Shown: piece after piece, positions 12,388 through 47,850 of the stretch
Layout of the letters: every line of letters starts with the position of its first letter
Position numbering within the stretch: the first letter of the stretch is position 1
Assembly: GCF_964204645.1 (NCBI RefSeq)
Contig: NC_134025.1
Coordinates: 18,885,101 to 18,949,100, forward strand
DNA from: Tubulanus polymorphus
Lineage: Eukaryota; Animalia; Nemertea
DNA length: 64,000 nucleotides
Direction of reading: 5' to 3'
Notes under the pieces: generated by a model
What the model saw: only the letters and a program-made list of their open reading frames with translations
Database searches by the model: none
What the model was told of the DNA's origin: nothing
Position numbers and translations under genes: made by a program

Positions 12388-12425
12388 ATGCATAATATTT
12401 TTACTAAATAAATGGCATTTGCAAT

Positions 12426-15400: not shown

Positions 15401-18400
15401 TAGAAAAGAGATCTTACATTTTGCTCATGATATACCTATTAGGCTATTGGCCATTTAGGCGTTAATAAAACGTATAAAAAGATATTAAGGTATTTCTTTT
15501 GGCCAGGTTTCAAATCTGATGTTGTTCAGTTTTGTAGGAGCTGTCACTGTTGTCAAGTGATAGGAAAGAGTACAGTTGTTCCTGCAGCACCGTTACAACC
15601 TATACCTGCCTTTTCAGAGCCGTTTGCTGATATTCTCTGTGATTGTGTAGGTCCCCTTCCAAAAACTCGCTCAGGAAATGAATTCCTGCTTACAATTATA
15701 TGCAAATCTACACGTTTTCCAGAGGCTGTACCTCTCAGGCGTATCAACGCGCCTTCGGTTATAAAGGCTCTTACCAGGTTCTTTACTAATTTCGGTCTTC
15801 CAGTGACTATTCAGAGTGATAATGGGTCGAATTTTGTGTCTAATATGTTTCAGAAAATAATGCATCAACTCGACATTAAACAAAACACGTCGAGTCCTTA
15901 TCACCCTGAAAGTCAAGGCGCTTTGGAACGATTTCATCGCACTTTTAAGAATATGCTCAGAGCCTATTGTGAGGAAAATTCGCGAGATTGGGATGAGGGA
16001 GTGCCGTTTTTGTTATTTGCTGTGCGAGATACTGTACAGGAATCATTGGGTTTCAGTCCTAACGAATTAGTTTTTGGCCATCATGTTAAAGGACCACTGA
16101 AACTGATCAAAGATCTTTGGTTGCATGAAACTACGGAGGTTTCATTGTTGAAATATGTCACTGATTTTAAGACACGAATGTATGAAACTTGGCAATACGC
16201 CCGTGATCATCTACAGAAAACCCAGGAAAACATGAAAAGTTGGTTTGATAGGAAAGCCAGATTTCGGTCATTTTCACCTGGTGAAAAAGTTTTAGTACTG
16301 TTTCCTTTGGATGGTCACTGTTTGAGAACAAAGTTTTCTGGTCCGTATGTTATAGAACGAAAATTATCGGACGTAAATTATTTAGTTGAAACACCGGATC
16401 GTAAAAAGAAATTTCGTGTTTGTCATGTAAATATATTAAAACAGTATGTGGATAGAAATCCGTCTGATAGTATTTCTCCCGTTTCAGTAGTTTTATCTGT
16501 GTCGCCTGGACGTGCAGATATATGTGTTGAAGATGATGTAACTATTGATGGTTCATATGCATCACCGTTGTTGAAAAATTCAAGTGTGCTGAATGAGTTG
16601 GATGAAAAGCTCAGCCATCTGGAGCCGGGTCAGAAATCCGAATTAAAAAGTCTGATAGATGAGTATAGACATTTGTTTTCTGATATCCCTGGTGAAACCA
16701 CTTTTGCTTGTCACGTCATGGATTTTGGCACCGCTTCTCCTGTCAAATAGCCTCCTTACCGTTTGAATCCCATGAAAGCTGATATTATGAAAAGAGAAGT
16801 TCAAGCCATGTTAAAGATGCAAGTTGCGGAAACAAGTGAAAGTGATTGGTCATCTCCTTGTATCATAGTTCCTAAACCTGATGGCAGGTGGCGCTTCGTT
16901 ACCGATTACCGCAAATTAAACAAACTTACTAAAAATGATTCTTATCCAATTCCCAGGGTGGAGGATCTGATTGATAAGATTGGCAGTGCTAAGTTTGTTT
17001 CCAAATTAGATCTCACTAAGGGATACTGGCAAGTGCCGTTGTCCGACCGTGCTCGTAGGATTTCTGCTTTCGTGACTCTAGATGGTTTGTTTCAGTGCCG
17101 AAAAATGCCTTTCGGCATGAAAAATTCTGCTGCAACTTTTCAGCGCCTAATGAATAAAGTTGTCAAGGGTTTTACTTGTATAATAGTGGTACATAGATGA
17201 TATTATTGTATTTTCAGACACATGGGATGATGACATACAATTACTACGAAAGCTGTTTGAGCGTCTGTCCGAGGCGAACCTGACCGTCAATTTAACTAAA
17301 AGTGATTTTGTCAAAGCAACAGTAACGTATCTGGGGCATATCGTTGGACAAGGGCAAGTAAGACCTGTTGACGCCAAAGTTAGGGCTATCCTTGATTTTC
17401 CTGTTCCTTCGGATCGACGCTCACTCGTGCGTTTTTTAGGTATGGCCGGATATTACCGGAGATTTTGTCAAAATTTCGCCGCTATTGCTTGTCCTCTCAC
17501 GAAAGACATCCCATTCGTTTGGAGTGGTTCCTGTAATGATGCTTTTGAGAGGTTTAAGTCTTTGTTAACTTGTGATACTGTAATGACTGCTCCAAATTTT
17601 CATAAGCAATTCAGTCTTACTGTTGATGCAAGTGATGTAGCGTCGGGGGCAGTATTGTCGCAGAAAACAGATGATGGTATTGATCACCCCTATTCAAAAA
17701 AATTCAGTACTCCTCAGAAAAACCTACCGTTGAAAAGGAGTGTTTGCCGTTAATTTTGTCAATTGAACATTTTGATGTGTATCTCAGTATGCCATTATTT
17801 CCAGTTAGTGTGTATACTGATCATAATCCGTTAGTCTTTTTAGACCGTATGAGAAACAAAAACCGTCGACTAATGAGTTGGAGCATTCTGCTACAGGAGT
17901 ATAACTTGGAAATACATCACCTGAGAGGTCGAGAAAACGTAGTTGCTGATGCACTTTCGCGCGTGTAGAGTAAAAGCCGTTCCGTGGGTTCTGAGGATTG
18001 GTTATGTGTTACTTCAACGTTGGACATTTGGAATTATGATAAGCGAAAAGACTTGACTATGTCGATGTTTAGATTTGAGTGTATTGTTTCGTACAATATG
18101 TGTACGTTCTTAACGGCGGGGGTGTTACCTCTGTTGGGTTTATAAGTACGAATATAAGTATATAAGTATGAATATTTTTGTATAGATTTTGTATCTGTAT
18201 TATGTAGTCTATTGAACGATCTGGTGTTTGTCAGGGTTTACGCCTCCATAATTCTTATCTGTCAGGTTTGGTATAAATGTGTGCATTCCCTGACCAGTAC
18301 CAGTTAGTTCACGCCGTTGTCACATTAAAGTTATATTGAAGTCAAGTCTACATTCGTCGTTTTGTGTCGTTTGTCGTTGAGTTTGGTGGATTTCGACCAT

Positions 18401-18420
18401 GGCTGAAGGAGGCCGTAACA
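12426..18420 (+). mobile_element. Ty3/Gypsy LTR retrotransposon, Gmr1-like (PR-IN-RT-RH order), decayed
   Basis: Truncated 5' LTR ~12426-12609; full 3' LTR 18123-18420 (TGTTAC...GTAACA) after PPT GGCGGGGG. Confidence 0.9.
13424..17968 (+). pseudogene. Gag-Pol: Gag with CCHC knuckle, protease, integrase, RT, RNase H; several stops and frameshifts
   Basis: CNYCKNPGHLISNC; LRDTGA; DCVGPLP/SDNGSNF/ERFHRT; LDLTKGYWQ/MPFGMKN; VDASD/YTDHNPL/ADALSR. Confidence 0.92.
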
Positions 18421-18434
18421 TAACTATTATAGGA

Positions 18435-19088
18435 TAATTCCGGGTTTAATATTAGATTTTTAAAAAGTGATAGTTCTGATAGAATAAAGATAAGGTTGTC
18501 TAATAGTGAAAAACATAAATTTATGGTTAAAAAACCTATAGCTAAACTGTTAGGAATTCCTCCAGATAGATCTTTTACAAATATTGATGCTACACCAAAC
18601 TTAATACCTTACACGCATTTTTATATTTATTGCAATTTAATTGATCCTACAAATTCATTTGAAGCAACTAAAGTTACAATTTGTAATTCTAGTATATTAA
18701 ATGTTTTACCATTAAAAAATGTTAAACAATTTGGAACACAAATAAATTATAATTAAGCTGAATGTGATTTTAAACCTTGTATTTCACGATTTGATAATTT
18801 TAAATTAGAAGTAAGAATTCATAATGGTTACTTAATTAATTTAAATAACTTTCCTGTAATTTATGAATTAGTTATAAGATGTAAAGAGTAATTTTTCACT
18901 ATATAAATGAATATGTGTTGGACCGAGTATATCTTTTGGATTTGATTTTAAACGTGAAAAAGAAATGAAATTTAACATTAATGATGTAATAACTAATATT
19001 AAAAATATTACATTTTTTTATGAAACAACATTTGAATATGAAACAACAATAAATAAAAAAAACTTTTAATGTAGAAAAGATAACTGAT
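18435..19088 (+). repeat. Near-identical duplicate of 11426-12080 (penton 3' half)
   Basis: Sequences match from TAATTCCGGGTTT to GATAACTGAT. Confidence 0.9.
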
Positions 19089-19234
19089 AAATGTGTGCAT
19101 TCCCTGACCAGTACCAGTTAGTTCACGCCGTTGTCACATTAAAGTTATATTGAAGTCAAGTCTACATTCGTCGTTTTGTGTCGTTTGTCGTTGAGTTTGG
19201 TGGATTTCGACCATGGCTGAAGGAGGCCGTAACA
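19087..19234 (+). repeat. Extra partial Gypsy LTR (copy of 18273-18420)
   Basis: ATAAATGTGTGCATTCCCTGACC...GGCCGTAACA. Confidence 0.9.
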
Positions 19235-23399: not shown

Positions 23400-24647
23400 A
23401 TGAGTGGGAATTATATCAATCCTTCTTCGAATTCTAGAATATCTAATGCTATTAAAGCAGAAAGATCCCATCATATAATTACTCATAACCCTTCTAATAT
23501 TTATCCCGATGAAACTTTATACGTTAGAATCCCTAGATTAACACAAAATACTTTTTACGTTCCAAATAGTATTTATTTATCAGCCGATATAAAAGTAATC
23601 GGTAATAATAATAATTATGTTGTTGATAATGTTGGAAGATATTTGATTAAAAAATTAACTATAAAGATTGGTCCAGAAACAGTTTTCTCATTAGATGATT
23701 ATAATTCATTTATGCATTATAAAGATTTATGGTTAACTAAAGAAAATAGAAATAATATGATATTTCAAGGAATCCAATCAGAAAACCAAAATAAATTAAG
23801 ATCAGAAGCACATAATGCAATATTAACTAATGCTGTAGATAAATTGATAAAAAGTATATATGAAAGCAAATATAAAATTCCATTAGACTTTGAATTGATA
23901 AATAACAATGCACCTTTATATAAATACGCAATTCAAGAAGACGTTATATTCGAAATAACATTTGCTCCTGTAAATGAAATTGTATTATCTAGCGTTGTTA
24001 AAGATATGAGTTATAAATTATCGAATATATGTTTAGAATATGATACAGTAACTGATGAAAATATTGCTAACACAATTCAAACTCAATACAATCAAGGATT
24101 TTCATTATTATATGATTATATTGATAAATTTAAAACTGTAACTATTAATGCAAATGATGAAATTATTAATGAGAATATTAACTTCCCAAGGAGATCTATT
24201 AAAGGTATATTAATATTTTTTACCATTGCAACATATTCTAATGGTGCAATAAATGTTGATAATTATTATAATCCTGAAATAACAAAAGTAGAAATAACTA
24301 TCGAAGGAATAGCAAATAAAATATTTTGTCAAGGAATTAGAATGATTGATCAATGGCCAGAAATTAGAAAACATTTTATGAATGAAAAAGTGAAATCATC
24401 TGAAAATTGTAATATTAATCAAATTGATTATTATGCCGGTAACAAATATGCATTATGGTTAGATTTTAGAACAACAGAGGATAATTCATTACATGGTTCT
24501 GGGAAAAAATTACAGAATACTAAAGATGGAATACAATTATTCATGACAAAGAATAAAGGAATCAAAAATTTTAAAATGCACATTTATATTATATCTGACG
24601 CGCAATTAAATATTGTAAATTCTAAATTAGATAGTGTTATGTATTAA
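23400..24647 (+). CDS. Major capsid protein (double jelly-roll, Polinton/PLV-like), intact 415 aa
   Basis: Size, beta-rich pattern (VGRYLIKKLTIKIG, YKIPLDF, LSNICLEYD, RSIKGILIFF, KYALWLDFRT, IYIISDAQLNI) and context with penton and ATPase. Confidence 0.78.
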   Translation: MSGNYINPSSNSRISNAIKAERSHHIITHNPSNIYPDETLYVRIPRLTQNTFYVPNSIYLSADIKVIGNNNNYVVDNVGRYLIKKLTIKIGPETVFSLDDYNSFMHYKDLWLTKENRNNMIFQGIQSENQNKLRSEAHNAILTNAVDKLIKSIYESKYKIPLDFELINNNAPLYKYAIQEDVIFEITFAPVNEIVLSSVVKDMSYKLSNICLEYDTVTDENIANTIQTQYNQGFSLLYDYIDKFKTVTINANDEIINENINFPRRSIKGILIFFTIATYSNGAINVDNYYNPEITKVEITIEGIANKIFCQGIRMIDQWPEIRKHFMNEKVKSSENCNINQIDYYAGNKYALWLDFRTTEDNSLHGSGKKLQNTKDGIQLFMTKNKGIKNFKMHIYIISDAQLNIVNSKLDSVMY

Positions 24648-24679: not shown

Positions 24680-25623
24680 ATGGAAGGAGGTAAAGTATAT
24701 AAACATATTCCATACATCGATACACATGAAAATAATGATGGTTTATATTATGTAATACCTTGTAATATAGCTTTGATATTTGATCCTATTTTCAAAATTT
24801 ATAAAACTAAACTAATAGAAATCGATAATAATAAAAGTGGTGTTGTTGATAATTTAAGTAATGTAATACCTTCTACATCTAATAATGTAATACCTACTAC
24901 ATCTAATAATGTAATGCCTACTACATCTAATAATGTAATACCTACTATATCAAATAATGTAATACCCTCTACATCAAATAATGTAATACCTTCTACATCT
25001 AATAATGAAATAATATTAAATGTTAGTGAAAATAGAAATTATTGTGATTATTGTAAAGGCGAATTTTCAAACGCTCCATCAAATTGGAATAAACATATGA
25101 ATACAAGGGTACATATAAATAATGTAATAGATCGTGTTGGTTTAAAAGAATTTATAGAACACCCATTTAGATATGTTACAAAATTTGTTTCAAATAAAAA
25201 GTAAATGGTAAAGAATTATATGAAGATTTTTTATTAGCAACACCTAATAAAGATGAATTAGATTTAACCGATGCTAATAAAATATTAGGATCAAACATTG
25301 TAAATGAAATATTAGGAGCAAACACTAATAAAGATGATAATGAAAATGGCGCCATACGGCACCCACATGATGATATAGTTACAGATAAGCATATTGATAA
25401 TAAAGATTCTATGAAACATAAAGTAGTAACTATTGATGATGTGATAGAAAGGATGAATAAGCATAACAATGAAACAACTATTGATGATGCGGTAAAAAGG
25501 GTGAAGAATAAGTATAAAAATAATGAAGAATTAGAAGAAGATTCGGTAGAGAAATTGAATAGCTTGTTAGGGTCTGATAGTGAAAGTGATTCAGAAAGTA
25601 ATTATCTAACAATCAAAAAGTAA
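24680..25623 (+). pseudogene. Protein with (NNVIPSTS)n repeat, C2H2 zinc finger and acidic tail; probable frameshift near 25200
   Basis: 24-nt tandem repeat ~24857-25006; CDYC...HMNTRVH. Confidence 0.6.
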
Positions 25624-25627
25624 TAAA

Positions 25628-26010
25628 GGTTGAAAATTGTATAAAATAATAGTAAATAAAAAAGGGGGTTTTAAGTATTAAGGTATTTAATACATATCTA
25701 ATACGTATCTAATACGTATCTAATATGTATCTAATACATATTATTTGAAAATACCTTAAATTATATATCTTTTTTAAATTTATATTGAAACCTCAGTAAT
25801 AATAAATAACCTTTATTATTTTCAAACTTATTCATATATTAGTTGAAAAAAATAAAAATAAATTGGTTGAAAATTGTATAAATAATATTTATTTTAAAAA
25901 AGGGGGTTTTAAGTATTTAAGGTATCTAATAGGGTATCAGGTATTAGGGTATCTAATGGGGTATCAGGTATTAGGGTATCTAATAGGGTATCTAATACAT
26001 AGATATATAA
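25628..26010. repeat. Duplicated non-coding block with short tandem units at the gene convergence point
   Basis: GGTTGAAAATTGTATAAA...AAAAAAGGGGGTTTTAAGTATT at 25628 and 25865, each followed by GTATCTAAT-type repeats. Confidence 0.75.
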
Positions 26011-26014
26011 AAGG

Positions 26015-26610
26015 TTATTTTATAAATTTATATTCATAGGGAAATTGTAGTCTCAGGAATAATTTTGAACCTTTATTATTCTTTAATTTATTCATATAAT
26101 CATCATGTAATTCAGTAGGTATAATTTGATTTTCTTCCGATGATTGTTGCATAGATTTCTTATCTTTGTTATAAAATAAAACTAGAAATCTTATATTCTC
26201 CCTAAAGTCTTTAACAATTGAATTATATTTTTGATTTAAAACCCATGTTGTTATCCCAAAATGTCTCCCAGAGAAAGCTAGATAACATAACTCACTTTCT
26301 CTAACTTTTGAATCAGGTAAATTTGCACAATCATCTATAATGAATAATGTATTTGATCCTTTATAAGTATCAATTGCTATTTTAATACAATTATCTAAAT
26401 TTGGGATAATATAATAAACTTTTTTATCTTAACTATATCTCTATTATATGTTTTATTCATTTCATAAGTAGGACAAAATAATATTATATTATCAAAATGA
26501 TTCTTATAAATAGTTTCTAACAAATCTAATATGAAATGTGTTTTACCACAATTGGTTACACTAGTAACTAACATATTATGCGGTTCAAATATAAATAAAT
26601 CTTTATTCAT
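26015..26610 (-). pseudogene. A32/FtsK-type packaging ATPase, frameshifted
   Basis: SVTNCGKT (Walker A G to S), TLFIIDDCA Walker B. Confidence 0.85.
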
Positions 26611-27702
26611 TTATTCTTTTAATTTTACTAGATAAAATCCATTCATTAAATTTATCATCATATCCTTTATATTTCACCAAAGAATACTTTTTTCCTTTAA
26701 GAGTTTTTGTTTTCAATACTTTTTCTATTTTGTATTCTATTTCATCTGGGTTTGGTACAAGTGATAATTCTTGTTCATAGACATAACCTAATATTTCTTC
26801 ATCTTTTAGATCTTCTAATTTATAAACAAAAGGTTTAGTTAGTATTATCTTTTTAATCTTGAATATTTCTTCAGTAAAATTTGGGGTATGACCTTTATAA
26901 AAGGTTTTTCGATATTTAGATATTCTAACGTGTTGTCCTATTTTAAATTTAGGTTCACCGAAATCATGTGTAACAAATGCTCCATATAAATTATTCCAAC
27001 CTATTTCTGAATTATCTTCTTTTCTAGCTTGTATAGGTTTCATATTTATAGAACTATGTTTAGAATTATTATAACCTTTCACTAAATCATCTAATACATC
27101 GATATATATATATATGTTTCATTAGCAGTAAAGTATTTCCACATTCTAGTTTTCAATGTTTTATTAAATCTTTCTATAATAGATGCTTTTTTATCTGAGT
27201 GTTTTGAAAAATAATCTACATCGTTATCAGATAATAGTTTTTTAAAATGTTTGTTATAAAATTCCTTACCTTCATCAAATTGTATCATATCTGGAAGAGC
27301 TTCTTTAAATATTGATTTAAAAGCATTTGTTACTTCTATTCCAGTTTTAATTTTGATTGGAATTGACCATGCGTATCTACTGAATATGTCTATAACATTT
27401 AATATCCAGAAATATCCTTTGTCGTGTTCTTCTAAGTTCTTCATGTCAATTAAATCTGCTTGCCATTGTTGATCGATATATGAAACCATAACTTTTCTTG
27501 TTAAATAAGTTTTATCCATTTTCTTGTGGATTTGATATGTTGGTTGATTTTGTAACCATGATTTTAATTCACTATATTTTATATCACCATTACCATTTTC
27601 CTTATCAGATTTAATTTTACCCCAAAATTCTGTAACGTTAGAATATGATACTTCACTTTCTGGGTTATAATATCAATCTCTTAAATATTGTTCTTTTTTC
27701 AT
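26603..27702 (-). pseudogene. DDE integrase plus chromodomain; early stop and (TA)n frameshift near 27100
   Basis: Same motifs as copy A; YKIEKVLKTK...VKYKGYDDKFNEWI. Confidence 0.92.
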
Positions 27703-28924: not shown

Positions 28925-29590
28925 TCAACCACTCATTAAAGACTCAACGTATTGTTCATTATTTGGATCATTATTCCATAATTCAATAAATTTTTTTGCT
29001 TTATCCAGTTGATTCAAATATAACTGTAAATCTAGTTTATTAAATTTTATTTTATTTTCTTTCTTTTCAAGAGGTCTTAAATTCTTCCAATTCCAAATTA
29101 ACTTTTTATCATATTCATCATTCATGTCAAATTTAGAAATAGGCAACACATGATCAATATGAAAGTATTCACCATAATTATCTATATTCATTTTATCATC
29201 GAATTGATATATTATCCATGATTTGAAAAATTCATCTGAACAACCCAATAAATTAGATAGTGTTTCAGAATGTGTTTCTTTGTTGAATAATTGTGTTAAT
29301 CTAGATCTTAAGCATTGTTTCAATCTAAAATTAAGATCCGTTTGATATCTTTCTCTCATATATTCTGTCATATAATCATTATAAGCTTCTCTATTATCTT
29401 CTCGATATTGTTTGGTATATAGTTTAAAACAAGTTTTACAGCAATATTGAAAACCATCTTTGCTAATCTTACGCTTACTAAATTCTGTTAATGATTTATC
29501 TAATTCACATTTCGAATACTTCTTGTAACATATATTTATAACACCAGTGTTATTTGTAATATTGATAGTTTGTGGTTGTTCTGGTTCCAT
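28925..29590 (-). CDS. HNH endonuclease, 221 aa
   Basis: HIDHVLPIS...WKNLRPL; near-identical to 4831-5481. Confidence 0.85.
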   Translation of the reverse strand: MEPEQPQTINITNNTGVINICYKKYSKCELDKSLTEFSKRKISKDGFQYCCKTCFKLYTKQYREDNREAYNDYMTEYMRERYQTDLNFRLKQCLRSRLTQLFNKETHSETLSNLLGCSDEFFKSWIIYQFDDKMNIDNYGEYFHIDHVLPISKFDMNDEYDKKLIWNWKNLRPLEKKENKIKFNKLDLQLYLNQLDKAKKFIELWNNDPNNEQYVESLMSG

Positions 29591-29710
29591 TTATTATACG
29601 TATATTTCACTAAATTGGTTAATATTTTAGAATCCTCTTCCATTTCTTCGACCAACGTCATCCTTTTTCATTCTTCTTTGCTTTTGATAAATTGTTTCGA
29701 TTCCTTGATA

Positions 29711-30265
29711 TCTAGATAATACCACTGGGCAAAAGCGCGCATTCATGCGCGCTTTTGCTTAATGCGCATGCGTTAATCATAATTATATATTCATTCTATA
29801 AATTCTGTAAAATAGAAACAACACATGCGTTGCATGCGTCACATGCGGCCATTGATGTCCGGTTTTGCTTAATGCACATGTGTTAATCATAATAGAAACA
29901 ACCGACATGAAATATCTAAATAATACCACTGGGCAAACCGCTCTTATAGGAGCGTTTTTGCTTAATGCGCATGCGCTAATCATAATTATATATTCATTAT
30001 GTAAATTATGTAAAATAGAAACAACCGAACACAGAAAATATCAAAACGTGTTCGCATTAGGCAAAAGCGCGCATTCGTGCGCGGTTTTGCTTAATGCGCA
30101 TGCGCTAATCATAATTATATATAATTATGTAAATAGAAACAACCGACATGAAATATCTAAACGTGTTCGCATTAGGCAAACCGCGCATTCATGCGCGCTT
30201 TTGCTCAATGCGCATGCGCTAATCCTAATTATATATTCATTCTGAATAGAAACGACCGAACATAA
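29711..30265. repeat. Array of ~5 units (~100-125 bp), most with a GC-rich palindrome
   Basis: GCAAAAGCGCGCA-TTCA-TGCGCGCTTTTGC followed by TTAATGCGCATGCG.TAATCATAAT...ATAGAAACAACCGA. Confidence 0.85.
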
Positions 30266-31069
30266 AAATTCACCAAACAGATTTATGCAATACATTATAC
30301 AAGTTGTTCGGCCGTTTCTTCCAATACATCATTTGATTTCTATAAATACAATTTATAATTACAAACATTTTTTCAATTGCTGGTAAATATTTAACTACAT
30401 CAACAAATGTTAAACTTAATCATCGGAGTCTTAATGTTTTTGAAATTCTTATATAGTTTCTTCGTTGATCTTTTGTGATTCTATTGGTTTGATATCCATT
30501 GCTGTTGATTCCTCAGTCAGAAAGAGTATCTTGAGTTTCTCTATCACTTCTTGATGCGTATGACGTTTTATTAATCTAAAAGATATTAGCGGCAACTCTA
30601 GCCATCTAAAAGATATACTAAATACACTTAAATATATCTAAAGGTTTCATATTTAATAGCCCTAATAACTACAAAAAACAGTACTTACATTTAGATTTAG
30701 AATTGTAAACTATAAACTCCTAATTTCGTTTCGAGAGATAGAATATCCTAAGCGTAATGTTACAGCGTCTGTTCAGTTCCTGCCACGTCATCTGGTTCCG
30801 GTTCTAGAGTGTTCTCTGCACGTTTGCAATAATGAGTCATATGTCTCGGCGTCATAGTAACAGCTGTGAATTTATAGATTTATTCCATAGCTCTTTACAT
30901 TGAATGTATATAGGCTCAAATAGAATCATGTTCACACTTTACTAACACTTTTAATGTTTAAAAATCTAACTCACACAAATATGAATATTGAAATAATGTT
31001 GTAAATATATACTTTTATATTGAATAATCTGTCAATTTAAATGTTATTCATGTATATGATTATTTTAAG

Positions 31070-31478
31070 AGTAATAGGGGTTTAGTTGGTTCAGGTTAAA
31101 GGTTGAATGGTCGAGTTCATTAAAAACAAATATTAAAAGTAATTTAAAACTATAATATATTTTCATAGCCGTGTGTATTTTAGTTAAATAATAGAATAAT
31201 TATTATTATTTGAATATATTTGATTATATGAATTTGTGTATTGTAAATAAATCAATTGGTCGCGGAGCGGAGCTTTAGCGAAGCGGAGCGACCAATTGAT
31301 TTAATACAATATGCTTTTAAAATTTAAATTATAAATATCTTAGAATAAATATTTAGTTATAAAATAAAATGCACACGGTTATGAAAATATATTATAGTTT
31401 TAAATTACTTTTAATGTTTTGTTTTTAATGAACTCGACCGTTCGACCTTTGGCCTGAACCAACTAAACCCCTATTACT
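31070..31478. repeat. Right terminal hairpin of copy B, ~409 bp
   Basis: AGTAATAGGGGTTTAGTTGGTTCAGG...CCTGAACCAACTAAACCCCTATTACT; apex stem AAATCAATTGGTCGC/GCGACCAATTGATTT. Confidence 0.95.
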
Positions 31479-34179: not shown

Positions 34180-37100
34180 TGTGATGGAGTGACTATCACC
34201 ACAGAGAGTTGACCAGATCCGAAGGAGTAAAGTCGAAGAGCGTGTTGTATTTTGTGAATCTAAACAGCATCTAACTTTATTACTACAGTATAGGGTTACA
34301 GTATAGTACACATGGCGCGAAACAGCAACTAATCATATAAGAGAGACATCAACGAATCATATAAGAGAACCAACACATGTCGTTCTCGACACTCCGGGGG
34401 CGGCGGTAAGCGCCAAATTTGAAAGTTTACTCCAAGATAACATGTATCGCATTAAATTGAAAGATATTAATAATCACTATACTAAGTAATAGTTTCACGT
34501 ATGAAATTGAATCGCCATAAGGGCTAGAAATAGGGACATTGCGTTGTGTTGAATAAATGAGTACATAAAAAATATTTCATAATAAATGACTATCTATAGA
34601 AAGCAAGTTAACATCGTATCGAATAACATTTAAATTCATCAATCCGCTTTATAGTAATAATAAGTCATTCCCAACACCAAGAGTGATTAAACGATATTTC
34701 AAGTCCTTTCCGGTAAAGAAAAGTTTCGAAGCGAACGCGTTATTTGTTTAAGATCGGAAACGATTAAAGTTCAGAAAACGCGTAAAAACGATAACGTGTT
34801 TGACCTCGCGGCCGACGAAGAATTTAACGTAAACACGCATGCAGAATCACGTGATGTAAACATAGTTGAGTAAAAAGGCAATAATAGCCTACGCATCGGT
34901 TTCATACATATAATCCAGACAGAGTTCAGTCTTTTAATAATTTCGTCCAATTTCTAATCTTTCGCTGAGCGTTGGCTGCGGCCAGCCTGGTCGCACGAGT
35001 TTTCGGTTGATTTGTATCCGTAATCGTACCGGTATCCGATGAATCATCGACAGATTTCGTGTTAATTTCCAGCGGATATAATTTCGATACGGGTCGGTTC
35101 GTACGGCCGGTACTTGTTCGAATATCCGCTGATCGCACAAGTCCATCGGCGCTAACGTTTAATTTCTCGACGAGTGCCATACGCCAGTGTATTCGCTTCT
35201 TGTTGTCCTCGTGCACTAAAACAATGTCGCCAGTTTTTATTTTGTTTTCGAGTTTCCCGTTGAGTTTCGCACGTTCTCTGAGCGCTATCAAGTATTCACG
35301 GCTCCAACGTCGTTTGAATGAACTCAAAAGTTCTTGCAACGTTTGATTACGGCGTTGAATATCAGTATACGAAACGTTAAAGTCCTGATCATTTAGATCA
35401 ATGTCCTCATACGGCAACAGAGTTAATTGGCGACCGCATAACAGTTGTGACGGAGATAACGGAAGAGGCTCGTCTTCCGTACTATACACATACGTGAGAG
35501 GTCGATCGTTGATCGTAGCCTCAATTTCACACAAGAGAGTTCGTAATTCATCGTCCGTGACGATGCTTCTACCGAGAATCTTTCTGAGGCATTCTTTCGT
35601 TACGCCTATCATCCTTTCCCAGAATCCCCCGAACCAAGGGGCTCGTTTGGGAATGAATGTCCATCTGATTCGATTGTTCGCCATATATCTCGCGACGATC
35701 GGCGAATTGACGATTTCTTCTATCTCTACGCAAGATTTTAGAAAGTATGACCCGTTGTCACTGATCAGTTCATGCGGTAACGATCTACGCGAAACGAATC
35801 TCCGGAATGCTCGAATAAACGCGGCAGGTGTCATATTAATGACTGATTCGAGATGGACTGCTCGCGTGATGGCGCATGTAAACAGACAAATGTAACGTTA
35901 ATGCCGCATGTCAGACGTGCCTCTGACCCAAATTTCGCCGGAATAATCTACTCCGGTAACAGTAAAGGGCGGAGCATCCGTAACGCGCGAAACTGGAAGT
36001 GGTGGTGGTATAGGTCTACAGTAGGCGGAGCCTCGTACTATAGCGCACGTAACACATTTCCTGAGAACTGATTTTACGACTTGTCTAATTTTCGGTATCC
36101 AGTATCTTTGCCTGATAGCAGTAACAGTCCCGCCGATTCTTAAATGTTTATCCCTCCTGTGGTAAAACAACACGATCAAACGCGTAATATGGTGATCTGG
36201 TAATAATTCATCCCACGAGACATTCGCTTTCCATAATTCTTGGATGAATATTTTTGATTTGATGTGAACCGGCGATAACAGTCCTAACGGATCATAGAGA
36301 CTCGCCACGCTCCTGACGATTTCGCGCTTCGTAATAATTTCTGGTTCGCTATGCTCGATCGCTTGTTTGTATTTAAGCCTGTCCTGATTGACATCCCACA
36401 GGAGTCCTAGGTTGCTGACAACGTCATGTCTGTTCAATAAGTTGTCTTTACTCGCATTATGTCTCAGGTTTTCGTTGTTACTAGTCCACTCACATAGTTT
36501 AAATCCTGCGTCGGACATCATCCGATTCGCGTTATGGTAATAATCGATCGCTGTCGATTCATCTTTCACCGACGTAACGACGTTGTCTACGTATATGCTC
36601 GATTTCATATCGTTAGCTACCGTGCTCTTATCTTTGTCCAAATGTGATTTTATGACGGCATTGAGAATAAACGGCGAGCACGCTGCTCCGAATAATACAG
36701 ATTTAAATTGATACGTAATGAATTTGCTTTCGGGGTCGTTTGGATCGCTTAGCCAGAAAAATTTCGTGAATTTCCGGTCTGGCTCGGCTAGGCCCACTTG
36801 AAGGAAGGCCTTTTCGATGTCGCTACTAAGTCCAACGTCGCATGTACGAAAGTTCATCAAGATCGAACCAAGATCGTTAAGCAGTAGCGGTCCTTTTTCC
36901 AGGCAGTCATTTAAACTCGGAGACTGACGCGTACGGAAGCTACAATCGTAGACGACGCGAATTGGTGTTGTAGCTGAGTCTTTCTTCATCGAGTGGTGCG
37001 GTATATAATGCCCTTCGGATTCGTTTTCCTCGTGGATCGACTCGATGAATCCACGCGCTATTTGATCTTCGATAATTCGATCATAGATTTTTCGGGTATC

Positions 37101-39481
37101 GTTATTTAGTTTCCTGACCATCGCTCGCGTTCGGTTGGCTGTGTTCAGTCTATTGGTCGGTAATGGAGGGTGTTCCGGCCTCCACGGTAGCTGCGCAACG
37201 TATTGGTTTCCCGCCTTTTCGATACAATCCGTCGCGTAATTTTCAAACGTAAGTTCTTCGTTTATCGGGTGTTTTATCCCGAGTGTTTCGACTCTCCAAA
37301 AGTTTTCGAGTTGGTCTCGTTCATGAGTATCATCGGTGAGGATAAAGTTCGCGTAGTCACAACGGTCGTGACTCGAGTTTTTTAGCGGACCCGAAAGAAG
37401 ATAACCGAGTTTTGACGCAACCGCTGTGGGGCCGTTGCCCCTGACGACTTTGTCCTCAACTAAGGACCAGTAGTAGTCGGATCCAATTAATAGAGCGATT
37501 TCGAACGATTCACGACCGCTTACAGGGTGCGCCAGTTTCAGACCCGATAGATAATGTAAATTACGTGTATCTTTGATGTGATTACTCATAGGTGTCGTAA
37601 TGTTCGATTTTACGAGTGCGCTTATCGGCACGTCTCCAGTTTCGGTTTTAATGGCTAACTTGACCCGGTCGTATTTCCTTTGTTTAGATTTAGTATCTCC
37701 AAAGATCGAAAGATTCAGTATTTCGCTCGACTCCGGTTTCAAGTTTAATTTCACGGCTGTTTCCTCCGTGATCCATGTTCGGGTCGAGCCTTCATCAAAC
37801 AATATGCTGACGGTCTCGGAGTTTTGATGTTTTTCATCAGTAATTTCAGCAACAGCTGTCTTTAAGACGACTGGCGTCGATACGGTGATTGAGTCTTGTG
37901 AATTTAGCACGCCGATGTACATTTGCCTGTCATCGCATCGCGGGTTCTGATCGTTATGACCAGCTGATTGTGGTTTTTTGCCGCATAGAGATGTATGGTG
38001 TTTATCTGAACATACGGAACAGCTATAGCGTGACCTGCAATCTCCGGCTTTGTGATTTTTTCTCAAACAATTTCGGCAGAGATTTTCTCTTTTCACTATA
38101 TCCATCCGTTTTTCCAGAGTGTTATAGATCAGACAATCCCTTGATTTGTGGTCTTTCTTGCAGTAGTTACATTGAATTTTATAATTACGGTCTAGACGGC
38201 TTGTTTGATTTCGTTTTCTGTGATGAATTAATAACGACGTGTCTGTGGTTTCGTCTTCTGAATCGCTGATGAGCACACTTTGAATGGCTTGTCCTGCCAG
38301 ACCCGCTTGAATCTCTTTCTGTAACGCTTTCTTCAATTCAGTTAAATTCCATGCTGAATCACCATGGTCGCGTGTGATCTGAGTTTTAATTCCCGATGGG
38401 AGTTTCTCGAATATGACTGGAATCAGGAGATCCCCATAGCTTTCCTCGGTCTTACCGAGAGATTTTAGACCCCTGATATAGCCTTCCAGTTCATCGTAGA
38501 ACTTTTTCATCTGTTGTACATTTTCGCGTGGTTTTGGCAATTCCCACAATGCCTTCATATAAACGTTGATCAATTTATGAGTTTGTCCGTACCTGTTTTT
38601 CAAAAGTTCAATGGCTTCGACGTAGTTGTTATTGGTCAGTGATAAGCCCTCGACGCATCGGGCCGCTTCTCCGCTGAGTTGCGCACGAAGATACTGGAAT
38701 TTTTGGATGTCGTCTAATCCGGTATCGTTGTGGATAGCTGATTCGAATGCATCTATAAAGCCGATCCATTGTAGTAAATCCCCGCTGAATGTCGGTAAAT
38801 GTAAATTAGGTAGATTGACTTGCCTTGATTTGTTGTTAATCGGTTGATGAGTTGTCGTTGTCGTCGGTTTCGTGTCGTTATTGAACGTTTCAATAAAGAA
38901 TCTATACTTTTGTATTTCGATAATCCGTTCGAATGCGAAATCATCTGCTTCTGCGATAGATGATTGTAGATTTTCATCAGGCGTCAACGAGAGAATTGTT
39001 TGATCTAGTTCTTGTATGAGGTTTAGCTTTGTGACCGCTGATGATATGATTGCTACCAGATCTTGAACTTCGGCTAGGCCTACTTCTGTTGATCCGGATT
39101 GTAGGCTCTGGTAGACCTCTTCTGCACGATTGAGGTATTTAGATAACTGCCCTCGGTGGGCCAACCGAGATGCTGTAGGACGCTTCGTTTGGTCCATTTC
39201 GTTTTGACGCTCAGTTTCGTCATACGCATTTTCCGATGTCGTCGACATAATCCTGGTCACGGCACCAAATGTGATGGAGTGACTATCACCACGGAGAGTT
39301 GACCAGATCCGAAGGAGTAAAGTCGAAGAGCGTGTTGTATTTTGTGAATCTAAACAGCATCTAACTTTATTACTACAGTATAGGGTTACAGTATAGTACA
39401 CATGGCGCGAAACAGCAACCAATCATATAAGAGAGACATCAACGAATCATATAAGAGAACCAACACATGTCGTTCTCGACA
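34180..39481 (-). mobile_element. BEL/Pao LTR retrotransposon nested in Gypsy gag
   Basis: 212-bp LTRs 34180-34391 and 39270-39481; TSD GTCAG; PBS TGGTGCCGTGACC (tRNA-His-like). Confidence 0.95.
34926..39248 (-). pseudogene. BEL/Pao Gag-Pol with RNase H region deleted in frame and an integrase frameshift
   Basis: LPTFSGD gag, triple Cys-His knuckles, LFDEGS protease, DIEKAFLQ/YVDN RT, SDNGS/GGFWER integrase. Confidence 0.9.
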
Positions 39482-39900: not shown

Positions 39901-42900
39901 ATGACATTTATGCTGAAATGTCAATCGGAGGGCGATCGATCCGTTTTCAAATTGACTCGGGGGGCTTCGGCAAATTTGATTCCGATTAAGTACGTAAAGA
40001 ACATCAAGGAAATTCGGCCTACAACGAAGAAGCTCAAGATGTGGAACAATAGTGTTCTGAACCCCGTTGGTAAAATTAGACTAGCTGTGGTCAACATGCA
40101 TAACAAGAGACGATATTCATTAGAATTTATTGTAGTCAATGAACGATTAACACCCATAATCGGTTCTCAATCTGCACAGTTGATGCAGTTGATAACAGTT
40201 AATAATAATAATAATTTTTTGAGAGTTAATCAAATCGAAAGTCAGTCCCCTGAGGTAAATTCTATTTTATCAGAGTATGAAAATGTTTTTCGGAAAGAAG
40301 TGGGTACACTTCCAGGGGTTGTTCATTTGAACGTAGATCGAAATGCAGTTCCGGCAGTTATGCCTATTAGACGTATACCTCATGCCCTGACGAATAGGGT
40401 AAAATTGAAGATTGAAAGTTTAGTAAACAATGGTGTATTAGCCAGTGTAGACGAACCTACACCGTGGGTAAATTGCCCTGTTATTGCCGAGAAGTCGGGA
40501 GATGTAAGACTGTGTCTAGACCCACAGCAATTAAATAAATATTTAATGAGAGAAAGATACCCCATACCTGTACTGGAAGATATTTTACCTGACATGAAAG
40601 ATGCGAAAGTTTTCAGTAAATTCGATCTTAAGTCGGGGTATTGGCATCTGCGCCTCGACGAAGAATCGAGCTTACTTACTACTTTCAACACTCCATATGG
40701 GAGGTATAGATGGCGCAGGTTGCCATTTGGGCTCAGTGTATCTGGTGAAATATTTCAGAAACATTTAAACCAAGCACTCGAAGGCTTGGAGGGCACCTAC
40801 TGTATCCATGACGATATTATACTTGTAGGAGTAGGGACAACTATTGAACAAGCCATAGCTGATCATAACAAAAAATTAAGGGCTCTTTTGCAAAGATGTA
40901 GAGGAAAACAAATTGCTTTGAACTTGGAAAAATTAGAATTGTTTAAGAAAGGAGTGCCATTTATTGGTCATAAACTAACAGATAACGGCCTAGAGGCGGA
41001 CCAAAGTAAGATTGAAGCTATTTTGAAAATGCCGGCGCCCACTGACGTGGCGGGCATACAGCGTATCAACGGCATGGTAAATTATCTCGCGAAGTTTTTA
41101 CCTAATTTATCAGATGCTTTAGGTCCGCTTAGGAAGTTAACGCGTAAAGATACTGAGTGGTCTTGGGCTCCCGATCAAGAGTCGGCCTTTGCCAAGGTCA
41201 AAGAATTGGTTACGAAAACTCCGGTTTTGGCGTATTATGATCCCAATAAAGAGCTAACATTGCAGTGTGACAGCAGTCAATCTGGTCTGGGCGCGTCCCT
41301 GATGCAGGAAGGACGTCCAATCGCCTATAGTAGCAGAGCATTAACTGACGCTGAAATGCGTTACGCGCAGATCGAAAAAGAAACTCTTGCTATTGTTTAC
41401 GGCTTAGAAAAATTTAATACGTACACATATGGCCGCAAGGTTACAGTTGAAAGTGACCATAAACCTATCGAGGCTATAGTTAAAAAACCTTTGTCGCGCG
41501 CGCCTAAACGTTTGCAGGCTATGTTACTTCGTGTCTATAAATATGATGTCGAGATAAAGTTCACTCCGGGGTCGAAGATGTTCATCGCGGACACCTTGTC
41601 TCGCGCATACCTAGATTCTGGATCGGAGACAGCGGAGTTTGACAGTATCAATATGGTTCGGTATTTGCCAATTAGCGCTGCGCGTTTATCGGAGATTAGA
41701 GATGAAACCGATAAAGATGATACCATGCAGATATTGAAAGAAATTATTTTTTGAGAGGGTGGCCAGATGAGAGAAGTTCAGTGCCTACTGAAGTTACTCC
41801 ATATTTCTCATTTAGAGATGAGTTGTCAATTCAGAACGGTATCATTTATCGCGGGGAACGCGCTGTGATTCCCAAGTCGATGTATAACATTATAAAAGAC
41901 AAAATTCACAGTTCACATCTTGGCATCGAATCCTGTTTACGTCGTACCAGAGAATCGGTCTACTGGCCAGGTATGAACGCCCAGATGCGCGAATATATGT
42001 TGTCGTGTAGTTTATGTCGTGAGCATGACCAGGCCCAGTCCAAAGAGCCTATGCTGATCGAGACTCCCCCAGCTAATCGACCGTGGGAGAAGATCGGTGT
42101 CGACTTATTCAATTTGAAAGGGGAAGATTATCTAATAACAGTAGATTATTTCAGCAATTTTTGGGAGGTAGATCGGTTGGTCAAGTCCACTAAATCGACT
42201 CCTGTCATAGCAAAACTTAAAGCTCATTTCGCGCGATATGGCATTCCGGACATTATCATTTCCGATAATGGACCTCAGTTTGCCTCGAAAGAATTCCGTA
42301 AGTTTATGATTGATTGGGACATTCGGCATCGTCCTATAAACCCGTATGACAGTAAGTCTAATGGACAGGCTGAGTCGGCGGTCAAGACCGCGAAAAGACT
42401 TCTTAAAAAAGCATATGAGGCGAAACGAGACCCCTATCTTGCGATACTCGATTTTAGAAACACGCCCACTCAGGGCTTAAATGTCAGTCCGGTCCAAAGG
42501 TTTATGAACAGAAGAACCAGGACTATGATGCCAACGACGGCTAATCTATTACGGCCGAAAATTAGTTTATCAGACGGGTCCGAAAAAAAACGTAAGCAGG
42601 CCGAATATTTCAACCAATCGGCCAAGAACCTTAAACCGTTAGACGAAGGTGATATTGTTCGCATGAAACCATTTCCGGGGCATGGAACAAACTTAAAGGC
42701 GACGGTCACCGAACGCGTCGGGAATCGCTCTTATCTTGTCGAAACTGGCGACAATAAAACGTACAGGCGCGCAAGACATCATCTCAGAAAGACCAACGAA
42801 ACGATCGTTGAACCGGCTGTAGATTCTGATAATACAGTTGAAAACCGGCCTATATCGGAACCGGTAGCTAACGAGACATCCGTTTCAGATAGTCAAAATT

Positions 42901-42962
42901 TAAGTCGACCTGAAAGGCAACGTAGACCCCCTACCTATTTAACTGATTACGTGTGTAATTAA
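39901..42962 (+). pseudogene. Gypsy Pol (PR-RT-RH-IN) with frameshifts near 39960 and 41750
   Basis: IDSG protease, DLKSGYW, IHDD, CDSSQSGLG, SHLGIE, SDNGPQF. Confidence 0.93.
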
Positions 42963-43615: not shown

Positions 43616-46600
43616 CGATTACGATTACGATTACGATTTATTTACACTCCAACCATTTCCATGGTATATGGAGGAAAACTATTACACATGTACAAATATT
43701 TACAAAACAACACTAAAGTGATTAAAATTTAGAGAATGAAAACGTAACGAAATATATATATACATCAACTATTTACAATACTATATATACTATTATATAC
43801 ATCAACTATTTACAATAATACTATATATACTATTGGAGGGATCTATATACATCTAAGCCGGTCTTAATGAATTTAGCTAAGTTGACCGTTGGGTTTTTCA
43901 GAATATCAAGGGTATTAAAGGTATTCAAATTCAAAAAGTTTATGCGTTGTTCGTTAAGTAAGGTACAGTCAAACAGAAAATGGGATTCGTCACCTAAAGT
44001 ATTACAAGTGGGGCATATTCTATCGGCTCTGTCTAAATGAAGGTTTGAAAATTTGTTCACAGGTAAAATATAGGACCCGACCCTAAATTCAAATAAACTA
44101 GTTCCTAAGTCATCACCAAGTTCTATTTTATACTTCTCTAACCTAATATCATTTTTATATTGCCTAAAGTTAGTGTATATCGGATTAGTATTTATGGCAG
44201 ATACAGTTTCTTGAAGGTGCTGGTCACGGAGTATCTGTTTTATTCGTTTTGAAAAAGATTTACTGTTAGTCATGAATTGCTGCGTCCAAATGCAGGACAA
44301 ACCACAGTCATCAAACGTTTTCTTTATATATGATAACCAAGGGCTCTTAAATTTATCCCTTAAAAATAAATTGAAAGATATTTTATAGAGTATTGAATTA
44401 AGTTTGGTTTGCTTTCCAGATACTGTTTTCACCCAAAAGTTAATCATCCTGCGTCTAACATCTATAATCAAAGGGTAACGTCCTAGCTCTGATAAAACTT
44501 GTAAGTTGCGAGAATATTTCGTCACTTTCATTAAGATTTTACAGAAGAAGCAATGAATATTTTCTAATAAATCAAGATTTTCATATCCCCAGATCTCACA
44601 CCCATACATGGCTATTGGAGCAACACACGTATCAAATAATTTAAACATAACATCTATGGGCAATTTCAAACGTCTGCCTTTTTGAACGATCGAAAACATA
44701 GCTCTGATAGCTTTATCGTAAAGATACTTTTTTGCCTTAGCAAAGTTACCATTCCAATTGAATTTTACTCCGAGATAAACATAATCTTCAACTACCTCTA
44801 ACTCTTGATCACCAAACATAAATTTCGAGATCGTTTTTATCCGGGATTTACTTCGCGCAAATACTAGTACTTTAGTTTTCTCTGAGTTAACAGTGAGACC
44901 ATTAGCCGCGCAATATTCAAATAAGGTATCTAAGTGTAGCTGAAGAGATTTCTCATCCTCAGCAAGAATAACTGTATCATCTGCGTATAGTATTATGAAT
45001 AAATTCAGTAAAGTATCAATATCCTGATCACGATTCAAATTCAAGTCGGTTTTCCACGATCAATGAAAAATTCTTCAATGTCGTTTAAGAATAACGAAAA
45101 GAGGATAGGTGAGAGATTTTCGCCTTGTCTTAAGCCTCTATCAGCTGCAAAGTATTGTGACGTGCAACCATTTAATTCAACACATGATTTTATGGAGTTA
45201 TACATATTTTTGACCACATTGAAAAAGTTTCCATTAACATTGTTAGCAATTAATTTTCGCCATAACTTTACCCTACAAATCGAGTCGAAAGCTTTCTTAA
45301 AATCAACAAAGGCGCAAAAAAGTCTTCTTCCCTGACAAAGATACAGCTCTACGATTGTTTTAAGCGTGTAAATATGATCAATGGTGGAATATTTCGATCT
45401 AAAGCCAGCCTGGGCTTCACTTATAATGTGATTCGTATCTAGAAATGTTGACAATCTTTGATTTAGGATACTTGTAAATAATTTACCAAGACAGCTAACT
45501 AAGGTAATACCTCTATAATTATCAGGATTAGAGGGATCGCCATTCTTTTTGAAAATGGGTTTGATGACGCCTATAGACCACATCTCTGGAACATATCCTG
45601 TTTTAAGAACTAAATTGAATAATTTTTGTAATATATCAACTAAAAACGGATACTGACTAACTCCCAACAGCTCATTCGTGATTCCATCAATGCCTGGGGC
45701 CTTATTGTTTTTGAGTAAAGAGATAGCCTTAATTACCTCATCACTGGTTATATCACTGTTCAAAATATAATTGTCATAGACAGGATGGTCACCCACGTCT
45801 GGGGGCTCATCACCGTCATCGGTTTCATTGTTAACATTATTCAAATTATTTAATCTCATAAAATGTTCAAGAAAAATATCGATATCTATATTAGCCTCAT
45901 TATTTTTTGTTCCACTCGCCGAGTTTAGCATCGACCAATACTTTTTTGGGTTATTAATTTCGCATTCTCTCAATTCCTTAATAAATTCATCCTTTTGTTT
46001 CTTCTTATTTTCTCGGATGACCTTTTTATAGTTTTTAGACGAGTTCTTAAGGGATTCAAAATTGGAAGGGGTAGGGCAACCCCTATATCTTTTTTTCATA
46101 TAATTATATTTCTTCTGTGCATCTCTACAGTCCCTGCCAAACCATCTGTTGCGGACCGGTTTTTTGCAGTTATTACTTTTCCTACTTTTTCTATGGTACA
46201 TCAAATTACACTCATCAGCACTTGATAATAAAGAAGATACAAATCTATCGGTAAGTCCATTAATGTCATCTGGCGATTGATGTCCTAGATCTTGCAACCC
46301 GTCCAACAGTAACTTATCTAAATCATTATCTCGTAATCTTGATTCTACATTCAGGAAAAATTGATTTGATCTAGTACTGACCCACCTAATTGAAGTTTTA
46401 AAGTTCGCGTGTTCATTACCCCTTTCATTATCGCTAGCAATGGTGTCCCTAGAATTCGTATACACGCACAGATTAATAGGATTATGTCCATCAGATAATA
46501 ATGGGTCAAAAGGCATTATTTCAAAGTCCTCAACATAACCAAACAGTTCTAAATCACACACAAAATAATCGATGACACTAGTGTTCCTAAAAGTATAATT

Positions 46601-47850
46601 ACCTGTCTGATCATTGCCACATCTGCCATTGAGGATAATTAGTGAATGGTTCTTACACAAATCTATTAGTTGATAGCCTGTATTATTCTTTCTTTTGTCC
46701 TGATTATTTCTAGTAGTGGGAACGCCTAAATTAATCAATGAGTCAACAATAGGGTCTAAGTTATCATCTTGAATTATCTGATTATCAGGTTCCAAAAAGT
46801 CTGGCATACAAGCGGTGTGAGCATTAAAGTCACCAGAAATTAACACATTGAAATCATACTCAACTTTCAATTGCAATAACTCTATTTCAATTTCTCTGAT
46901 AGCTATTTCTGAATAATAACGACTATTTTCTGGAGGAATATAAATTACACCTAAAAGTACATGTTTGTCGCGATTAAATAAATCTTTATCTAATAAATAC
47001 CAAGATACAAACTGAGAGTCAGTCGAAATTGGTTTTATTTTGTTTTTCATGAACTTCCTATATATGATACCGACGCCACCTGATCCTTTTTTTGAAAATT
47101 TTTTCCTATTTTTAAAGTGCGCCATATGGGAGGCGGGCAAGCTACAACCTAAATTACCGTCTAAATCATCTAAGTGAGTTTCAGTTAGACATGTGATGTC
47201 ATTATTGCTAATAAATTCACAGAATTCTGGGATATCGAGTTTAGCTATAAGGCCACATACATTCAGCGTAGAAAACTTTAATGATGATTTGATACAAGGA
47301 ATTTCACTTATGTTTGCTGCGTTTGCTGTACTAGTTACATTTTGCTTATTTAAATCAGAAGTGTTAATATTTCGCTTATTTACATCAGAAATGAAATTGT
47401 TAGGAGTTACATCAGGTACATGATTGTTACTATTTACATCAGGGTATGTATCTACCGTATGAGAATTTACATGCGAGCCAACGATATCTCTATTTACATT
47501 TGGATAACTGTCACATAAATTTACACTATTTACAAATTCTATAACATAACAACAACTTCGAGATACAAGGACAGTCCGGTCTACGAATTGTACGCAAAGT
47601 CCCTCCGCTGGTTCCTAGTGGCTGTCCATCGGTACGCGGTCACGGTTTTCGCGGATAACGAGTTTGTCCCGTACAAAGAAAGCTTGTTTTCCGTTCGCTT
47701 TCGCGGCTCTCAGCTCGGGTAGCTTTTCGCGTCGTCTCGCCGCCCATTCCTCAGGCACCTGTTCATTCAGTCCTAAAGACGAGCCCGCGAGATTTTTTCG
47801 CAACTGAACGTACCAGTTCACGATCTTTGAAGAACTCGACAGTATCGGTA
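43616..47850 (-). mobile_element. Non-LTR retrotransposon (LINE, RTE-X-like); 5' boundary approximate
   Basis: ORF1 remnant 47615-47821, ORF2, AATAAA then (AATCGT)n tail at 43616-43640. Confidence 0.85.
43830..47290 (-). pseudogene. LINE ORF2 (APE endonuclease, RT, C-terminal Cys motif) with frameshifts
   Basis: LTETH, GDFNAH, IDYF, SDGH; DFKKAFDSI, GLRQGENLSP, YADD; CPTC...DESHFLFDC. Confidence 0.93.

Follow-up and report, generated by a model that had tools for sequence, protein, structure and literature searches.

The window analysed here, a stretch of 64,000 nucleotides of nemertean DNA, holds two copies of a multi-copy element of the Polinton lineage with capsid and integrase genes, and three long palindromes form the ends of these copies. 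Copy B is bounded by a palindrome on either side (B_L, 10576-10697, 122 nt; B_R, 31070-31478, 409 nt) and spans 20.9 kb from B_L to B_R, or 14.1 kb once a Gypsy insertion and a duplication are removed; copy A (1-6102) represents the right-hand portion of another element copy, 89-91% identical to copy B, which closes with the palindrome A_R (5897-6102, 206 nt) and whose left end lies outside the window. Each palindrome runs from AGTAA to TTACT, giving ends of the 5'-AG...CT-3' type, and left and right ends are about 78-80% alike, forming a terminal inverted repeat (TIR) in which each end is also self-complementary. The 3'-terminal strand is the + strand at the two right ends (at A_R and B_R) and the - strand at B_L; at A_R it is also noted as the better-folding one. 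The first-pass annotation had placed three hairpins at the element termini, and all are present, its 5895-6104 being the palindrome at 5897-6102 plus two complementary bases on each side.

Inward of B_L, a subterminal repeat recognised by repeat match (10698-10772, + strand) stops at the first ATG of the element. The first gene (10768-11110, +) is frameshifted and encodes a probable OB-fold ssDNA-binding protein, to judge from the fold of its open homolog in the related locus L003; the second (11126-11880, +) is broken and homologous to L003:565-1326, and we take it to be a putative minor capsid gene from its position, database matches being none. The major capsid protein (MCP; 23400-24647, +, 415 aa) is an open frame of the Polinton lineage by its tree and 928 homologs; its Pfam match to Capsid_N is weak (E 0.007), and a PDB sequence search with it gave no match. 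On the - strand follow an A32-type packaging ATPase (26015-26610) and an rve integrase with a chromodomain (26603-27702), both frameshifted and both assigned by Pfam, and an open frame for an HNH/endonuclease VII-like nuclease (28925-29590; PHROG 1035, E 9.2e-14). Beyond these lie a repeat array (29708-30268, unstranded), the units of which measure 90-200 bp, contain short GC palindromes and vary in number among copies, and, next to B_R, a diverged and shorter match to the subterminal repeat (31035-31069, -).

Copy A shows the corresponding features, all on the - strand: the subterminal repeat (5797-5896; AT-rich, promoter-like, running to an ATG, an inverted match to 10698-10786), a small zinc-finger ORF that begins within this repeat (5650-5814; zf-U1, E 0.0013), the open HNH/endonuclease VII-like frame (4831-5481; PHROG 1035, E 1.9e-17), the integrase with chromodomain (1233-2316) and the ATPase (682-1237), the last two again Pfam assignments. 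Integrase and ATPase are thus frameshifted in both copies, while the HNH/EndoVII-like gene is the one nuclease frame open in both. The Pfam matches are rve at E 2e-9 and 1.6e-8 together with a chromodomain in the integrase frames, and Pox_A32 at E 1.6e-5 for the packaging ATPase. The element further holds several small or unknown ORFs, and a conserved ORF of 442 aa yields a single-sequence fold model of pLDDT 32. A module of small ORFs, similar in sequence in the two copies, precedes the HNH gene in copy A (3551-4830) and follows it in copy B (30268-31035); raw reads across 29600-30930 show many deletions and repeat-number variants, the right subterminal region being plastic. Where the two gene blocks converge, after the ATPase gene, lies an AT-rich imperfect palindrome (265-680 and 25622-26098), present also in the relatives L001 (3684-3875), L002 (3092-3181), L003 (9082-9359) and L005 (3183-3255), which may serve as a terminator for both directions or as a poly(A) region.

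The foreign DNA within copy B (approximately 12425-19234, +) comprises a SCAN-domain Gypsy LTR retrotransposon, in which the integrase precedes the reverse transcriptase and which sits in a small gene of the element, and a tandem duplication: 11426-12080 recurs at 18435-19088 (99.8%) along with part of the LTR, which may be genuine or may stem from the assembly. Elsewhere the window contains BEL/Pao, second Gypsy and LINE elements with long open frames (34926-39422, 39901-42962, 43830-47140), a repeated 340-bp unit with a 68-bp tandem array (57251-61073), and a non-coding, MITE-like sequence of 634 bp with 32-bp near-perfect TIRs starting from AGTACT (50419-51052), which is unrelated to the element. 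The retroelements and the genes of the element point to an animal host, probably an invertebrate. The flanks of copy B read GAGGTA and GAGAGT, without a matching target-site duplication (TSD), and differ in read depth (13 and 75); given this, its two ends may come from different insertions.

Twenty-four related loci came from a metagenome scan and one from a prokaryote scan; IMG/VR, scanned with the MCP itself, with alignments of the MCP (two) and the ATPase (one) and with a DNA pattern of the hairpin, returned 0 loci. In the MCP tree the protein of copy B falls into an AT-rich clade (support 100/99) with L001, L003 and L005, and the gene order of the element matches L003 on the left side and L001 and L005 on the right. 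The neighbouring MCP clade includes L008, which carries a fragment resembling a protein-primed DNA polymerase (pPolB) beside an HNH gene. A deoxynucleoside kinase gene occurs in L003 (10343-10981; dNK, E 1.7e-31) and L007 (2898-3377) and is absent from the window copies. L025 combines a related capsid, an ATPase-like and a pPolB-like sequence; it is filed in an archaeal MAG and probably represents contamination of the archaeal bin by a eukaryotic virus. For L008 and L025 the pPolB label is tentative, based on sequence motifs and one PHROG match at E 0.007, Pfam giving none. The tandem motif of the window palindromes, described below, occurs in 0 of the 25 related loci, and a terminal palindrome in 0 of the 13 longer than 3.3 kb.

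The three palindromes share a fixed architecture. TTTTAAG lies directly on the inner side of each, which begins at the same base relative to it, and a second AGTAA follows TTTTAAG at each inner edge. Folded as single-stranded DNA, they reach z scores of -26.7 (A_R), -15.4 (B_L) and -29.4 (B_R), with no shuffled sequence as stable as the native one (0/200, 0/200 and 0/100, respectively); an ungapped stem scan recovered A_R and B_L and missed B_R owing to indels, while three local shuffles gave nothing. The arms co-vary between the copies, as had been claimed at first reading: the arm pairs GTTGTTTCATA/TATGAAACAAC versus GTTGGTTCAGG/CCTGAACCAAC are present, so that copies A and B differ on both paired sides, and over the first 48 pair positions the copy comparisons show 3 (A_R versus B_R), 7 and 10 double changes from one Watson-Crick pair to another, against 4, 6 and 6 one-sided changes in the matching comparisons. 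All termini indeed have the AGTAA ends and the tandem motif in common: AAAGGTYGAAWGGTYGA, allowing at most 2 mismatches, has 7 matches in the 64-kb window (0.08 expected), 6 of them in the six arms and the remaining one, with 2 mismatches, elsewhere. The apical parts had been described as unrelated yet still pairing, which holds for the stems; the loop GAGTGT(AC)GCGA, in identical inside-to-outside orientation, is nonetheless common to A_R and B_L.

Raw reads (12% of one short-read DNA run with the same species label) bear out both the multi-copy state and the covariation. Depth is about 1200-1570 over B_R and about 75 just outside it, and about 650 at the B_L loop compared with 13 in the flank. 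Exactly at 31478, 436 reads with loose ends leave the palindrome with an agreement of only 0.37, and the contigs X1-X3 likewise start at 31479, so that many insertion sites must exist; other loose ends, of 1326 and 840 reads, reveal additional variants of the arms and the apex. Among the top six rows of each run, a loose end with variable flank appears at the outer edge only, and the depth just inside the inner edge (600-770 at B_L, 1577 at B_R) matches that of the hairpins (650 and 1210-1520); the palindromes are therefore not free-standing MITEs. At B_L, both partners differ in eight position pairs of the arms (10581/10692, 10582/10691, 10588/10685, 10589/10684, 10600/10673, 10601/10672, 10614/10659 and 10627/10646), the last from C-G to A-T in 98% of reads on either side; a ninth pair, 10593/10680, changes on both sides without a matching partner letter, and at eight positions a read row appears for just one of the two sides. 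The apex bases 31274-31275 of B_R deviate from the window in about 90% of reads. Sixty opposite-strand reads at 31128/31422 fall on mirror positions and were set aside as arm-swapping alignments. In this one short-read library no site was found at which many molecules begin or end, and an empty insertion site of copy B is not visible among the loose-end rows listed.

The imperfections of the stems distinguish the two strands. When the 3'-terminal strand is folded, the mismatches comprise 23 G·T and no A·C, beside 23 others that are not wobbles; the ratio of G·T to A·C is 16:0 after three loop columns and four columns of the gapped AT-rich part of B_R are dropped, and 13:0 when shared positions are counted once (two-sided p about 2e-4). 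G·T is favoured on the + strand at both right ends and on the - strand at the left one, so that the bias goes with the 3' end in each case and not with a single strand of the genome. All three copies (A_R, B_L and B_R) have T·G at position 27, and a G-to-A change at 10663, seen in 308 of 338 reads, once more gives T·G on the 3' strand, its partner 10610 having no row. At the apex of B_R, the + (3'-terminal) strand carries four overlapping GCGNAGC motifs and its complement carries none; the read variant at 31274-31275 would add to these the mini-hairpin motif GCGNNAGC. Sheared G·A pairs in tandem could, we assume, arise in the common loop of A_R and B_L, on the 3'-terminal strand as well. For mini-hairpins of the GCGNAGC type, melting temperatures of 70-76 °C and resistance to 3' exonuclease are reported (PMC13037366). 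The folding-energy gap between the strands is only 0.5 kcal/mol at B_L. The wobble bias could arise from selection for pairing or from strand-biased C-to-T deamination, both of which single out the 3'-terminal strand; the asymmetry suggests a 3' end that folds back into a ready primer-template. This confinement of G·T wobbles and GCGNAGC mini-hairpins to the 3'-terminal strand is new here, a wobble strand bias in hairpin ends not having been found described in a literature search set outside subscription journals and Repbase.

The same wobbles report on orientation. Were the ends to invert by flip and flop, G·T would become A·C on half of the 3' strands; A·C was observed in 0 of 23. The polarity at position 27 is identical in 3 of 3 copies and the orientation of the loop in both palindromes that share it (2/2), and the inversion of loops between copies that the first-pass annotation had proposed to look for thus did not appear. 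Nor do the reads carry a flop signal: among the 40 of 57 rows listed, which extend to rows at 18% share and to rows of 10 reads, there is no A-to-G row at 10671 (about 150 reads) and none in the B_L loop at a depth of about 650, with which a minor flop share may be compatible. Opposite-strand joints occur in 8 of 2660 reads at B_L; loop-anchored reads do not tell inside from outside. Of the proposal in the first-pass annotation that these are opened hairpin telomeres, the position of the palindromes at the element termini stands, and the folding of the 3'-terminal strand agrees with the self-priming it had suggested; the flip/flop signature of an AAV- or poxvirus-type resolution is not seen.

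A replicase was sought with Pfam in 92 frames of the element and the neighbouring window (30, plus 62 short ones) and in seven retroelement frames beyond position 33000, and with PHROG in 11 window frames. For the element, neither polymerase, helicase, primase, HUH nor protease was found (the protease in frames of at least 50 aa, where a divergent one could be missed), and no HUH-SF3 initiator (NS1/Rep) matched in these scans, which cover copy B and the visible part of copy A. The pPolB-like fragments of L008 and L025 found no trace of a PolB by tblastn in the 64-kb window at E<=1. The reported lack of a protein-primed polymerase is borne out to the extent that none is detectable by Pfam or tblastn. 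L001, L003 and L005 likewise show no pPolB in 7.4, 11.5 and 6.3 kb, all three being incomplete contigs. The two window copies, frameshifted as they are, may be decayed deletion forms of an unseen parent that bears pPolB. The product of the first ORF is a probable ssDNA-binding protein (SSB): its natural open homolog in L003 gives a β-rich model (pLDDT 78), whose PDB neighbours are mostly SSB and RPA OB folds, all of them weak (best E 0.009; no match at E<=0.001), with PRD1 P12 among the weak fold matches and an atlas lead (score 0.87) to a phi29-type SSB.

These considerations lead us to favour, by a modest degree, a reading in which each terminus is a self-priming 3' fold-back that is extended by a borrowed, probably host, polymerase, in a likely fixed orientation. 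After release, the 3' end would fold back and bring TTACT-3'OH into pairing with the inner AGTAA, with template ahead, forming a primer-template junction; a folded 3' end of this kind makes self-priming the simplest reason for the folding of that strand to be favoured. Strand-displacement copying, aided by the probable SSB, would then yield hairpin-closed and concatemeric forms, as in a rolling hairpin. Excision of units would take place at the outer-type arm alone, with either the integrase or the EndoVII-like HNH nuclease as the cutting enzyme, and the rve integrase would insert the released units; which enzyme resolves the ends is a guess, no HUH/Rep having been found. The T that the inner arm carries at position 27 (and often at 35, in the tandem AAAGGTCG motif) would preserve pairing in the hairpin and, in the duplex form, would make a poor recognition site, disabling the inward-facing copy of the end; this would account for the fixed orientation, in a way comparable to the bubble at the left end of MVM. 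Cutting only after the outer-type arm would free units with both full palindromes in one orientation. More tentatively, and with the doubtful side prevailing, an animal lineage of Polinton viruses that form capsids and integrate would have dropped every replicase and given up protein priming for a rolling-hairpin mode of the parvovirus kind, with host polymerases doing the copying; the conserved G·T wobbles would be a code that leaves the hairpin paired, marks the outer arm only and secures one orientation without a Rep.

Protein priming in trans, the strongest competitor of the fold-back reading, is in our estimate unlikely, with a chance that is still to be reckoned with. It would make the element a non-autonomous Polinton, or the capsid half of one, copied by the pPolB of a partner with the same ends; the 3' fold-back would rebuild a duplex origin locally and replace the usual panhandle, which would leave the two ends free to diverge. 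Protein priming is equally compatible with the 5'-AG ends and the SSB-like gene: the former occur in vertebrate Mavericks (PMC8097293), the latter leads to the phi29-type and PRD1 proteins named above, and end-to-end copying gives a fixed orientation without an extra enzyme. A member of the sister clade, L008, has its pPolB-like fragment (E 0.007), and the depths at the B_R apex (1312 at 31274) and the B_L loop (about 650) together exceed that of the B-type left genes (300-460), an excess between figures of different thresholds that leaves room for other elements sharing these ends. Against it, a paired 3'-OH with template would be extended by any polymerase, which would close the end and destroy a protein-primed origin, and selection for folding of the 3' strand becomes hard to explain; the 64 kb hold no pPolB trace, and in protist elements terminal palindromes are reported to accompany non-pPolB replicases preferentially (bioRxiv 10.64898/2026.07.28.741278).

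Improbable, to a greater degree, is a purely structural role of the hairpins (as protection against exonuclease, as cruciforms, or as stems for excision, integration or packaging), with passive chromosomal multiplication of the element. The exonuclease resistance of GCGNAGC mini-hairpins (PMC13037366) and the EndoVII-like frame open in both copies agree with such a role, which makes a replicase unnecessary. For one single strand to be excised, however, folding has to occur on that strand at either end, and since the fold bias lies on opposite strands, peel-off signals of this kind are rejected; a cruciform extrudes both strands equally, and the long, unrelated apical stems would most simply have arisen by fold-back synthesis.

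Classical opened hairpin telomeres with flip and flop, produced by terminal resolution as in AAV or by concatemer resolution as in poxviruses, are very improbable here. A palindrome with an inner shared segment does resemble an AAV ITR with its D sequence (PMC11575299), and the EndoVII-like gene could resolve cruciforms; the common polarity of all three ends and both loops, the missing A·C mismatches, the few opposite-strand joints and the listed read rows free of flop nevertheless lead us to reject the AAV type. Independent MITEs, or accidental products of snap-back repair that landed at the ends, can hardly be credited, and the former are rejected: formally, each palindrome is laid out like a MITE, no TSD was found for copy B, and accidental annealing is offered as an alternative in the Halocafeteria preprint (bioRxiv 10.64898/2026.07.28.741278), but all three lie at the same base after TTTTAAG beside the subterminal repeat, with conserved wobbles and loop motif, the tandem motif is confined to the arms bar one match with two mismatches, and the inner-edge depth equals or exceeds that of the hairpins.

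On the copying of Polinton relatives without a polymerase, the 2026 preprint on Halocafeteria asks for a global test of hairpin priming. The present locus brings palindromic ends to what is probably an animal lineage of Polintons, in an element in which no replicase was found, and offers two cheap and general sequence tests: on which strand the wobbles read as G·T and on which as A·C, and whether polarity is fixed or alternates as in flip/flop. If the fold-back reading is true, a lineage of protein-primed viruses has come to rely on host enzymes and hairpin priming, and this route would connect the end replication of the Polinton type with that of the parvovirus and poxvirus types.

By its capsid, ATPase, integrase and ends the element belongs to the Polinton lineage; it lacks a detectable pPolB and maturation protease, and we therefore do not class it as a canonical Polinton by the definitions in PMC8502044, PMC8097293, PMC11161782 and 10.1101/2023.08.22.554363. 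With Polintons, Mavericks and adintoviruses it has in common the MCP, the rve integrase, the packaging ATPase, the 5'-AG...CT-3' ends, the TIRs and the multi-copy chromosomal state; it differs from them in that neither pPolB nor the maturation cysteine protease was found, in its size of about 14 kb, and in ends that resemble each other by only about 78-80% although each is self-complementary. A TSD of the 5-8 bp usual for Polintons was not seen at copy B, the ends of which may belong to two insertions. Hairpin-ended, replicase-free Polintons of animals were not found described in the same search, apart from subscription journals and Repbase, and no such element appears in the parts seen of PMC11131425, PMC11296320 and 10.64898/2026.10.13.758929.

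Closest in arrangement are endogenous virophages of Halocafeteria seosinensis (subtypes 1, 2, 5 and 6) and a PLV (subtype 4), for which the preprint describes palindromes in the TIRs at the ends, ties them to the absence of pPolB and proposes hairpin priming after excision (bioRxiv 10.64898/2026.07.28.741278, passage on these elements). As there, the palindromes lie within the TIR at the very ends of a capsid element that bears an integrase, here at 3 of 3 ends. The Halocafeteria elements, as presented in that passage, belong to a protist, carry non-pPolB replication genes and have palindromes of 52 nt in the subtype shown, whereas the capsid here is of the Polinton lineage, the palindromes measure 122-409 nt and differ between ends, and no replicase of its own, such as a primase-helicase or PolA, was found; the passage reports no analysis of strand bias or orientation. 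The idea of hairpin priming is already in print for protist virophages and PLVs.

Parvovirus ends offer a precedent for a fixed orientation, the left end of MVM being resolved asymmetrically and the left end of the LuIII minus strand being reported as flip only (PMC1185569); the ITR ends of AAV occur as both flip and flop (PMC11575299), and AAV uses Pol delta. Like these ends, those described here have short tandem stem motifs and an inner D-like segment and would use a 3' fold-back primer with a host polymerase; unlike in parvoviruses, no NS1/Rep HUH-helicase was found, and unlike in AAV, no flip/flop was seen; the element has a Polinton-lineage capsid, an integrase and a genome of 14 kb. The telomeres of poxviruses are covalently closed, occur as flip and flop, have AT-rich, incompletely paired stems and are served by a full viral replisome. 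The element shares with them such AT-rich, incompletely paired stems and a candidate junction resolvase, and differs in that its ends are integrated, opened and fixed in orientation.
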